Shown one piece after another: positions 29,975 through 31,946 of a stretch of DNA of 64,000 bases; within the stretch, counting starts at the first letter, position 1, and each line of letters starts with the position of its first letter. The stretch is from an uncultured Methanosarcinales archaeon (lineage in GTDB: Archaea; Nanobdellota; Nanobdellia; Woesearchaeales; GW2011-AR15). The notes beneath the pieces are model-generated. The model made no database searches, had not been told where the DNA came from, and worked only from the letters and a program-made list of their open reading frames with translations. Made by a program: the position numbers and the translations under genes. The DNA lies in the NCBI GenBank assembly GCA_964428335.1, contig CAYRXW010000003.1, positions 54,246 through 118,245 of the forward strand. The letters are read 5' to 3'.

Positions 29975-31946
29975 TCGTTTAAAATACTGTATAACTTGTC
30001 GAGATGGTACTAGATATGGTGCTGATATAAAGTTTAGAAAAGAATTGAATATTATCTTTGGACCAAATTCAGTTGGAAAAAGTAGCATAATTACTGGAAT
30101 AATCTACGGATTAGGTGCTGAAAAGAATTTAGGAATTTTCCAAAATACGCAAAACCCATTTAAACCAGAATTTCATAAGGAAATAGAAGGAAAAGTTATT
30201 TCTGATTCGTATTTACTTTTAGAAATATCCAACGGCAAAACAACATTATGCATTAAGCGAAACATAATTGGTTACACAAATATTGCTGAAATAAAGGAGA
30301 GCACTATTGAAACTTTTGAAAAGACAAATGACTCTCTCAAATTGATTATTGAAGGGAAAGGTGTTTTAGAGGATAATGGTTTTCAGAAATACCTTTATGA
30401 TTTTTTGAATTGGAACACTGTTGAAGTACCAAAATTTGAAGGTGGTTCTTCAAAGCTATATTTTGAAAATTTAGTTCCTTTGTTTTTTGTTGAACAAAGA
30501 GCAGGTTGGTCAGAAATTCAAGCAAGACAGGTTCAGAAATATGGTATAAGGGATATTAAAAAAGTAGCGTTTGAATATTTGATGGGCTTGAACAAATTTG
30601 ATATTCACATTATTGAATTACAGAAAAAGGAGATTCTAGAAAAGATAAATTTGATGAAAGAAGACCTTACACTAAAAGAAACTAATATTCTAATATACGG
30701 AAATGCGACTATTAATGATGGCGGTGTTCTTTTCGCAGAAAGACCTAATCACGCTAAAATGCCTATACTTGATATAATCAAAGAATTAAAGGAAGATTTG
30801 AGTGAGCGAGAATCCTCTCTTCTTAAACTTCAAAAACAAAAAGAGACTGCTGATAGCTTTGAAAATAGAAGCAGAGATGAATTAAGGCAAGTTTCTCATT
30901 CAAAAAGGGTCGCTAATGATAAAGTGTCAACTTTAATGAGGGAAATTAGTAGTTACAAAGGGTACATTGATAAAATTGAAATAAATAAGAAAAAAAATCT
31001 TCAATTAAAAAAAATCAACCAAGTATCGGATGAATTAAACATTTCGTATTGTCCAATTTGTCAATCAGAATTAAATAGCAATGAAGAAGGAACTTGTAAA
31101 TTATGTCATTCTGATATTACTAAGATATCTACTCCTGATGAGAATATATGCTTCTTAGAAGATGAAAAAGCATCTTTTGAAAAGATTATATCTATTAAAG
31201 CTGTTGATTTAGAAAGAGCAAAAAAGAATTATGAAGATTTGTTGGAAAATGAAAAGCAAATTAAGGAAAGGATAGATTTTCAACTAAAAACTTATTACGG
31301 CGAAGAACTGAATAAGCTAAGAGAAAGAATAACTGAAGCAGATTCTATCAGCAGAGATATTGATAAATACCAAAAAATCATAAATCAATGGAATCAATTA
31401 GGAAAAATTAGAAATGACATAACTCAGTTAATCAATAAAGAAAAGGAATTAAGAGAAACAATAAAAAAATATTCCGAGACTGTTAACGACCAGAAAATAC
31501 TTTCATCGGTACTACAAAACTTCAAAGGAAATATTGAAAAATTACGATTATTTAAATCAAAAGAAGAACTAATTAAAGAACTAAAATTAGACAATGAAGA
31601 AAATTATACTCCTTACTTACCGAATTATGATTTGTACAACATTAGCAGTTCAAGTGACAACATAAGAATAATTATCAGTTATTATCTTGCCTTATTACAA
31701 ACCTCAATTCAAATAGACAGCGATAGAATTAAATTTCCAAATCTGTTAATTTTAGACGAGCCAAAACAACAAAATCTGGATAATAGCGAAATTAAGAACT
31801 GTGTGGAAATAGTGGAGCAATTACCAAAGAAGACTTGGCAAATTATTCTAACAACATATCAAGAGCAAGACAAAACTATTTTCGATAAGTATATTATTCA
31901 TGAGATGAAGGATTCCAAAGATTATTTACTAAAGAAACAACCTTGA
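29937..31946 (+). CDS. SMC/Rad50-like ABC ATPase with coiled coil and central CxxC zinc hook (candidate LmuB-like)
   Basis: N-terminal Walker A IIFGPNSVGKSS, long coiled coil, CPICQSELNSNEEGTCKLCHS in the middle, C-terminal Walker B LLILDEP. Confidence 0.65.
   Translation: MRIGEKMRNLIINRLKYCITCRDGTRYGADIKFRKELNIIFGPNSVGKSSIITGIIYGLGAEKNLGIFQNTQNPFKPEFHKEIEGKVISDSYLLLEISNGKTTLCIKRNIIGYTNIAEIKESTIETFEKTNDSLKLIIEGKGVLEDNGFQKYLYDFLNWNTVEVPKFEGGSSKLYFENLVPLFFVEQRAGWSEIQARQVQKYGIRDIKKVAFEYLMGLNKFDIHIIELQKKEILEKINLMKEDLTLKETNILIYGNATINDGGVLFAERPNHAKMPILDIIKELKEDLSERESSLLKLQKQKETADSFENRSRDELRQVSHSKRVANDKVSTLMREISSYKGYIDKIEINKKKNLQLKKINQVSDELNISYCPICQSELNSNEEGTCKLCHSDITKISTPDENICFLEDEKASFEKIISIKAVDLERAKKNYEDLLENEKQIKERIDFQLKTYYGEELNKLRERITEADSISRDIDKYQKIINQWNQLGKIRNDITQLINKEKELRETIKKYSETVNDQKILSSVLQNFKGNIEKLRLFKSKEELIKELKLDNEENYTPYLPNYDLYNISSSSDNIRIIISYYLALLQTSIQIDSDRIKFPNLLILDEPKQQNLDNSEIKNCVEIVEQLPKKTWQIILTTYQEQDKTIFDKYIIHEMKDSKDYLLKKQP

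Follow-up and report, generated by a model that had tools for sequence, protein, structure and literature searches.

We analyzed a 64,000-nt window of contig CAYRXW010000003.1 (GenBank assembly GCA_964428335.1) from an uncultured archaeon. It very probably carries both a short three-gene type II Lamassu system, lmuA-lmuC-lmuB, predicted from sequence and structural models to act in anti-phage defense, and, at the coiled-coil tip of its sensor ATPase LmuB, a motif that is the zinc hook of that protein. The apex motif, CPICQSELNSNEEGTCKLCHS (LmuB residues 372–392, nt 31050–31112), falls within the region 30960–31160, where a first-pass annotation made from the sequence alone had noted a CxxC…CxxC pattern in the mid-region of an SMC-like, LmuB-type ATPase; it indeed lies about midway between the Walker A and Walker B motifs. 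Its cysteines, C372, C375, C387 and C390, are four of the nine in LmuB and are contained within 19 residues; we infer that they bind zinc. As judged by alignment, the distinguishing mark of the LmuB clade in the window is the second knuckle, CxLC, which brings the number of cysteines to four per chain.

LmuB and the apex of its coiled coil

The lmuB gene (29937–31946, forward strand) is a 669-residue open reading frame (ORF) for an SMC/Rad50-like ATP-binding cassette (ABC) ATPase. We assigned it with PADLOC, where model PDLC03863 matches residues 10–638 over profile positions 3–577 of 610 (E = 2.4e-59) and 14 other LmuB models also match at E < 1e-3. A monomer model was built with AlphaFold2 from a 74-sequence alignment (mean predicted local distance difference test score, pLDDT, of 83.8) and compared with the PDB using Foldseek. 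LmuB chains occupied ranks 1, 2, 4, 5, 6 and 9, above Rad50, and the solved chains matched (9hqu_A, E = 2.5e-13; 9hqx_B, 9ux7_A, 9uxh_F and 9nyg_B) belong to Salmonella, Bacillus and Vibrio-type Lamassu complexes. This link depended on the fold search because sequence searches of the PDB, with either the LmuB protein or the 74-sequence profile, returned only Rad50 heads and AriA and no LmuB. Likewise, the whole protein gave only a sub-threshold SMC_N match in Pfam, and only ASRP, Rad50 and SMC matches in NCBIfam, all far below threshold.

The window protein has the architecture of LmuB: a short antiparallel coiled coil interrupts the ABC head, within a total length of ∼600–700 residues. Its Walker A motif (GPNSVGKSS, residues 42–50, 30060–30086, forward strand) aligns to the Rad50 P-loop, and its Walker B motif (NLLILDE, residues 602–608, 31740–31760, forward strand), which carries the canonical glutamate, aligns to the Rad50 Walker B. 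Among 74 aligned full-length homologues with 45–72% identity to the window LmuB, G42, P43, N44, G47, K48 and S50 of the former, and L604, D607, E608 and P609 at the latter, are invariant. A survey published in PNAS in 2025 (Haudiquet et al., PMC12663957) gives hhhhD[Q/S/T/E] as the Walker B criterion for LmuB, and a Glu-to-Gln variant with slower hydrolysis has been published for Vibrio and Salmonella LmuB. Unlike in those proteins, the catalytic glutamate (E608) is invariant in the window clade; this clade may comprise more active ATPases than the Vibrio and Salmonella enzymes.

The AlphaFold2 model places the four cysteines at the tip of the coiled coil. The ascending arm (residues 219–362, ∼140 residues) is built from helices 219–255 and 277–362, and the descending arm from helices 400–511 and 516–535. 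The long ascending helix (residues 277–362, 30765–31022) and the long descending helix (residues 400–511, 31134–31469) are separated by the apex segment (residues 363–399, 31023–31133; all on the forward strand), whose 37 residues are the only long non-helical stretch between the arm helices. We assessed heptad periodicity as the Fourier power of the hydrophobic 3.5-residue repeat against 2000 shuffled sequences. None of the 2000 shuffles matched the periodicity observed in helix 277–362 and four did so for helix 400–511 (p ∼0.002), while the same test gave no 3.5-residue periodicity for residues 363–399. The heptad-rich flanks and the apical position described by the first-pass annotation are therefore both borne out. 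That annotation had also named a globular insert as the setting that would tell against a hook; we looked for one and rejected it, because helices and significant periodicity flank a tip of 37 residues, although the local fold of this tip is modeled with low confidence (isolated beta-bridges at residues 371, 378, 386 and 393, with pLDDT < 50 for residues 364–397). The model thus supports a position of the four cysteines at the coiled-coil apex, outside any large globular insert.

Within the apex segment, knuckle 1 (C372-P-I-C375, 31050–31061) is a CPxC hook motif of the Rad50/LmuB type, and we take its consensus form, CP[VI]C[EQ], to read like the hook motif of Rad50. Knuckle 2 (C387-K-L-C390, 31095–31106) is the clade-specific second CxxC, and a conserved post-hook motif, E402-N-I-C-F-L-E-D-E410 (31140–31166), starts the descending helix; all three lie on the forward strand. 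C372, P373, C375, C387, L389 and C390 are invariant in all 74 homologues, as are N403, F406, L407, E408, D409 and E410 of the post-hook motif. Both CxxC motifs recur in every one of the 121 full-length clade members retrieved, 118 of which keep the 11-residue spacing. Non-conservation of the cysteines, the other outcome that the first-pass annotation had set against its claim, was looked for and not found, and a chance motif is rejected on the same counts.

Conservation extends from the tip into the adjoining coiled coil. The mean majority fraction is 0.74 for residues 336–362, seven of which are invariant, compared to 0.45 for residues 277–335, none of which is. The tip-proximal segments 336–362 and 400–420 (0.68) match the ATPase heads in conservation, compared with 0.45–0.50 in the rest of the arms, which points to a protein-protein interface beyond a plain coiled coil.

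Three further features of the LmuB chain were observed. A 21-residue, poorly conserved non-helical insert with two short strands interrupts the ascending arm (residues 256–276, 30702–30764), and a helix break interrupts the descending arm (residues 512–515, 31470–31481); in the model, these two may correspond to the elbow, or folding point, described in solved LmuB. An additional CxxC, C18-I-T-C21 (29988–29999), occurs in the N-terminal head, where the homologue consensus reads YxIxT; it is probably incidental, because it is not conserved among homologues.

To place the double motif in the wider family, we used a profile search of 1.84 billion representative sequences, which yielded 1804 matches at E ≤ 1e-3, and examined the 140 full-length proteins among the best 150 of these matches. 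One CPxC at the equivalent apex position, with no second knuckle, was found in 128 of the 140, and two CxxC motifs in the remaining 12. Knuckle 1 in its CPxC form is present in 138 of the 140 wider relatives with any apex CxxC, proline following the first cysteine with one exception. Typical single-hook relatives read CPTCxQxIxDSLL...MSIEENIxFL and thus keep, in ..EENIxFL, an equivalent of the post-hook motif. The distance from the first cysteine to the conserved asparagine of ..EN[IL]xF[LI] has a median of 26 residues in single-hook relatives and is 32 in the window clade; the second knuckle therefore lies within an extension of ∼6 residues in the return loop. The two-CxxC proteins fall into two groups, the window clade and a Bacillota clade with the apex pattern CP[HRN]C-x12-17-CxLCG. 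The loci of the latter (L034–L044) are from Bacillus, Brevibacillus, Paenibacillus and Clostridium sporogenes.

These counts agree with the recent literature, in which a zinc hook is a normal and experimentally required feature of LmuB and not a departure from it. The earlier statement that a hook is absent from canonical descriptions of LmuB no longer holds. Many, though not all, LmuB proteins have a CPxCG-like zinc hook according to a 2023 review. In a 2025 preprint that describes the structure of Salmonella LmuACB, LmuB consists of a head, a coiled coil and a zinc-hook dimerization domain, LmuA and LmuC are docked near the hook motifs, and a functional hook is required for defense. A second 2025 preprint reports that Bacillus LmuB has a canonical hook, 285-CQYC-288, at its head-distal end, and in solved LmuB dimers the two protomers have their hook motifs in close juxtaposition at that end. 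The PNAS survey finds one CxxC in long LmuB and “zero, one, or two copies” in short LmuB, suggests divergent dimerization strategies among LmuB, and notes that Vibrio cholerae DdmC has lost the hook. Hence, we do not follow the suggestion that the window protein be separated from standard LmuB as a variant: most of its relatives carry one CPxC at this position, and the two-copy form itself is in the survey. The two-CxxC state of short LmuB is already catalogued, while its mechanism is unstudied in the literature.

Proposed zinc coordination and mechanism

In the published Lamassu frame, an LmuB dimer and LmuC bind the C-terminal domain of one LmuA at the hook-proximal coiled coil, where LmuA is monomeric and inactive; the heads sense DNA ends, and LmuA is freed, oligomerizes and cleaves DNA. 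Since all parts of the published system are present in the window, the same logic probably applies here. The LmuB chain would run up one arm of ∼140 residues (219–362), turn in the tip (363–399) and return to the ATPase head. Zinc binding would rigidify the tip, which together with the conserved tip-proximal coiled coil (E336–F414) would form a head-distal junction. To judge from the solved complexes, this junction would be the meeting point of the two LmuB arms and the docking site of LmuC and the LmuA C-terminal domain. Docking would keep the PD-(D/E)xK nuclease LmuA an inactive monomer until DNA-end sensing by the heads freed it to oligomerize and cleave DNA. The first-pass annotation had proposed a dimerizing, DNA-tethering ATPase; a dimerizing, DNA-sensing role fits published LmuB.

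We considered how the zinc would be held. The reading we favor, which we give about an even chance or slightly better, has a single zinc bound in cis by the four cysteines of a chain, as a small zinc-ribbon-like cap. Because each chain has four cysteines, one chain could complete a tetrahedral zinc site alone. The spacing CPxC-x11-CxLC corresponds to a knuckle, an 11-residue hairpin and a second knuckle, a layout that the beta-bridges modeled at residues 371, 378, 386 and 393 fit (pLDDT < 50). Four apex fragments searched against Pfam gave zinc-ribbon and zinc-finger matches, all below threshold, which we treat as a lead and not as a classification; the best, each across both knuckles, were to Zn_ribbon_DUF2089 (E = 7e-5; 23.3 bits versus a threshold of 27.6), the FmdE treble clef (E = 3.9e-4) and DZR_2 (E = 4e-3), whereas Rad50_zn_hook matched one of the four fragments at E = 0.36 (11.1 bits versus a cut-off of 24.3). 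One homologue is annotated by the Joint Genome Institute as a Trm112-family zinc-ribbon protein, and the Bacillota two-CxxC clade tolerates spacings of 12–17 residues, as ribbon hairpins do. The first-pass annotation had read CxxC…CxxC as the arrangement of Rad50; this needs amendment, since Rad50 has a single CxxC per chain, and four cysteines spaced by 11 residues are at least as ribbon-like.

Several points weigh against a cap in cis. The low pLDDT at the tip makes the beta-bridges weak evidence, every zinc-ribbon match in Pfam falls below its gathering threshold, and short cysteine-rich motifs cross-match easily. Published work treats the CxxC as a dimerization module, and published maps of Lamassu structures leave the zinc unresolved. 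A symmetric inter-chain hook with two zincs is geometrically possible, and the solved complexes show juxtaposed hook motifs from two protomers. Such a double hook, in which each zinc is held by knuckles of two LmuB chains, with two zincs per dimer, would be a reinforced Rad50 hook clamping both arm tips. It draws on the same juxtaposition, on the family-wide CPxC of knuckle 1 that the literature regards as a dimerization hook, and on the monomer model being unconfident exactly at the tip, as if the fold needed a partner. We nevertheless hold it to be a possible but rather doubtful arrangement: in Pfam, the Rad50 hook model resembles the apex sequence less than single-chain zinc ribbons do, and the fixed 11-residue spacing permits a simple hairpin that pairs the knuckles in cis. 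Moreover, hookless V. cholerae DdmC still forms an LmuB2 complex, so zinc bridging is inessential for dimerization in the family.

Apex chemistry other than zinc bound in cis or in trans is improbable. Two CxxC knuckles ∼11 residues apart are also the ligand pattern of rubredoxin, and some hosts of the clade, such as Methanosarcina and DPANN archaea, are anaerobic; the four cysteines might accordingly bind iron or form reversible disulfides, making the apex a redox or metal sensor. This is very unlikely in view of the same invariant motif in many aerobic Bacteroidota, the single CPxC zinc hook at the homologous position in relatives, and the lack of any rubredoxin family among the Pfam matches of the apex up to E = 10. 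Least probable of all, to the point that we reject it, is a DNA-repair Rad50/SbcC orthologue whose ordinary hook the motif would be. The heads do align to Rad50 in PDB sequence searches, and NCBIfam returns weak Rad50 matches, but these score far below their cut-offs (Rad50_Sulf, 25.7 bits versus 1000; PRK03918, 18.2 versus 700). No Mre11/SbcD gene is adjacent; the neighbors are LmuA- and LmuC-like, and the operon adjoins a type I restriction-modification (R-M) system on a mobile insertion. The arms are short, in a protein of only 669 residues, and solved LmuB chains rank above Rad50 in the fold search.

Returning to the cap in cis, we propose tentatively, at somewhat less than an even chance, that in the window clade an inter-chain hook of the Rad50 type has become a self-contained, single-chain C4 zinc ribbon capping each arm. 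The two LmuB chains would in that case lack a zinc bridge, and arm pairing and LmuA sequestration would depend on the highly conserved E336–F414 coiled coil and LmuC.

The lmuA-lmuC-lmuB operon and its mobile insertion

The gene lmuA (28425–29375, forward strand) encodes the effector, a protein of 316 residues with an N-terminal PD-(D/E)xK nuclease domain and a helical C-terminal domain. Across 41 homologues, residues D42, E60, C61 and K62 do not vary. The best Foldseek match of its AlphaFold2 model (pLDDT 88.1) is the Cap4 endonuclease (6wam_F, E = 5.9e-4), and the model also matches chains of solved LmuA tetramers (9nxx, E = 8e-4; 9hr5 and 9uxi). On the invariant D42…E60-C61-K62 and these model-based matches, we identify the product as a PD-(D/E)xK LmuA with a helical C-terminal domain. 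Two observations count on the other side: no LmuA model in PADLOC matches the 316-residue protein, and the Foldseek E-values are modest.

The middle gene, lmuC (29351–29974, forward strand; 207 residues in its longest ORF), overlaps lmuB. Its product matches PADLOC model PDLC03869 (E = 1.1e-5) and is 53–56% identical to the middle-gene products of the Methanosarcina and Yeosuana operons. The real start of lmuC is probably M8 or M9 (29372 or 29375), because the homologues in both of these genera begin at the position of M9. Similarly, lmuB probably starts at M7 (29955), because the homologue consensus begins there with MRNLIINRL; a start at M7 gives a 20-nt overlap of lmuC and lmuB, as in Methanosarcina. 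The A-C-B order with overlapping genes is seen in Methanosarcina barkeri and Yeosuana marina, and lmuA-lmuC-lmuB is the order in all of the ∼29 archaeal and bacterial clade loci with enough upstream DNA (Methanosarcina, Bacteroidota and others), lmuA lying directly upstream of lmuC-lmuB in each. The ORF downstream of lmuB is convergent and unrelated.

The Lamassu operon is carried as cargo by an insertion of 20,402 bp (15679–36080, within 15676–36083). The ends of the insertion form 27-bp imperfect terminal inverted repeats, identical at 25 of 27 positions, and a 3-bp direct repeat, CAC, flanks it on each side; the inverted repeats and the target duplication give it a transposon-like look. Removal of 15679–36083 in silico joins the ORFs 14911–15696 and 36078–36605 into an intact protein of 429 residues, phospholipase D (PLD)-like with two HKD motifs and a lamin-tail domain. 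The G+C content is 29.3% in the insertion compared to 35.3% in the rest of the window (33% for the window as a whole). The only recognizable recombinase in the insertion is a tyrosine recombinase (15766–17073), and a search for att repeats that treated regions separately found none.

Immediately upstream of lmuA, on the same, forward strand, is a complete type I R-M system: hsdR (23369–25699), hsdM (25709–27139) and hsdS (27136–28425). At 28425 the stop of hsdS and the start of lmuA overlap, so hsdR-hsdM-hsdS-lmuA-lmuC-lmuB may be one transcription unit; this linkage of R-M and Lamassu genes was not seen at the Methanosarcina or Yeosuana loci. Two other ORFs were noted in the insertion. One, of 549 residues (32302–33951, reverse strand), has no Pfam match and no credible match in NCBIfam or PADLOC. 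The other, of 338 residues (35041–36057, forward strand), adjoins the right inverted repeat and has no match in Pfam, the only library scanned for it; it could serve a function of the element.

The nearest homologues of LmuB (72% identity) and LmuA (68%, partial) are found in metagenome-assembled genomes (MAGs) of Candidatus Nanoarchaeia, and a partial match of 62% in a Nanohalarchaeota MAG. The LmuB clade is otherwise spread across Methanosarcina and many Bacteroidota, which implies horizontal transfer. The window also encodes an archaellum FlaI-like ATPase (55090–57357) and an Agl23-like protein. From the nearest homologues and these few archaeal-type genes, a DPANN archaeal host is likely. 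The FlaI-like ATPase is among the genes that flank the insertion, as are glycosyltransferases, a DltB-like protein and an MscS-like channel, a set consistent with a small archaeal genome. The whole 64-kb window contains no tRNA gene, and no Rfam family reached its gathering score there.

Comparison with known systems

The locus extends Lamassu to a probable DPANN archaeon, in which a 20-kb mobile insertion carries it together with a type I R-M system; of archaeal genomes, the PNAS survey lists just seven with Lamassu, and no DPANN genome is among these. The window clade is suited to testing whether zinc-mediated arm closure matters in an SMC-like immune sensor. Such a test is possible because natural LmuB proteins carry zero, one or two CxxC motifs, and the clade offers four invariant cysteines at fixed spacing, a canonical Walker B glutamate and a spread over archaea and Bacteroidota. 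Were the cap in cis confirmed, it would, as far as our literature search shows, be the first description of an SMC-like ATPase with an apex capped by zinc in cis, and a natural intermediate between Lamassu systems with and without a hook.

Among characterized systems, Salmonella enterica LmuACB (9hqu/9hqx) and the E. coli Lamassu Ec-Lipase share with the window system an ABC head split by an antiparallel coiled coil of ∼20 nm with a CPxC at its tip, the lmuA-lmuC-lmuB operon of short type II Lamassu and a PD-(D/E)xK effector. However, structural alignment with solved short type II LmuB gives only 13–16% identity, and the window clade adds the CxLC knuckle 11 residues after the first and has glutamate in its Walker B (LLILDE), whereas Vibrio and Salmonella LmuB have glutamine. 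V. cholerae DdmC, the LmuB of DdmABC, belongs to the same type of system (LmuA1-LmuB2-LmuC1), and its apex contacts LmuC and the LmuA C-terminal domain; the hook is lost entirely in DdmC and doubled in the window LmuB. The two-copy short LmuB of the PNAS survey is of the same type as the window protein, although that paper gives neither a structure nor a mechanism for the two-copy form.

The Bacillota two-CxxC clade, which ranks just below the window clade in the profile search, carries CP[HRN]C and then CxLCG where the window LmuB has its two apex knuckles, but is only 25–29% identical to it and has a spacing of 12–17 residues instead of the fixed 11. Upstream at the loci of that clade, nothing similar to the window LmuA or LmuC was detectable. 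Rad50/SbcC has the CPxC at the apex of the antiparallel coiled coil of an SMC-like ABC ATPase, and its heads are detectably homologous. Unlike the window LmuB, it has an Mre11/SbcD partner and arms that are much longer, and it contributes one CxxC, or two cysteines, per chain to a zinc shared by two chains, compared with four cysteines per chain here. Single-chain C4 zinc ribbons (Zn_ribbon_DUF2089, DZR_2 and Trm112-like proteins) show the same CPxC knuckle, short hairpin and second CxxC; the module of the window LmuB differs from them in being a 37-residue insert at a coiled-coil tip and not an independent domain.

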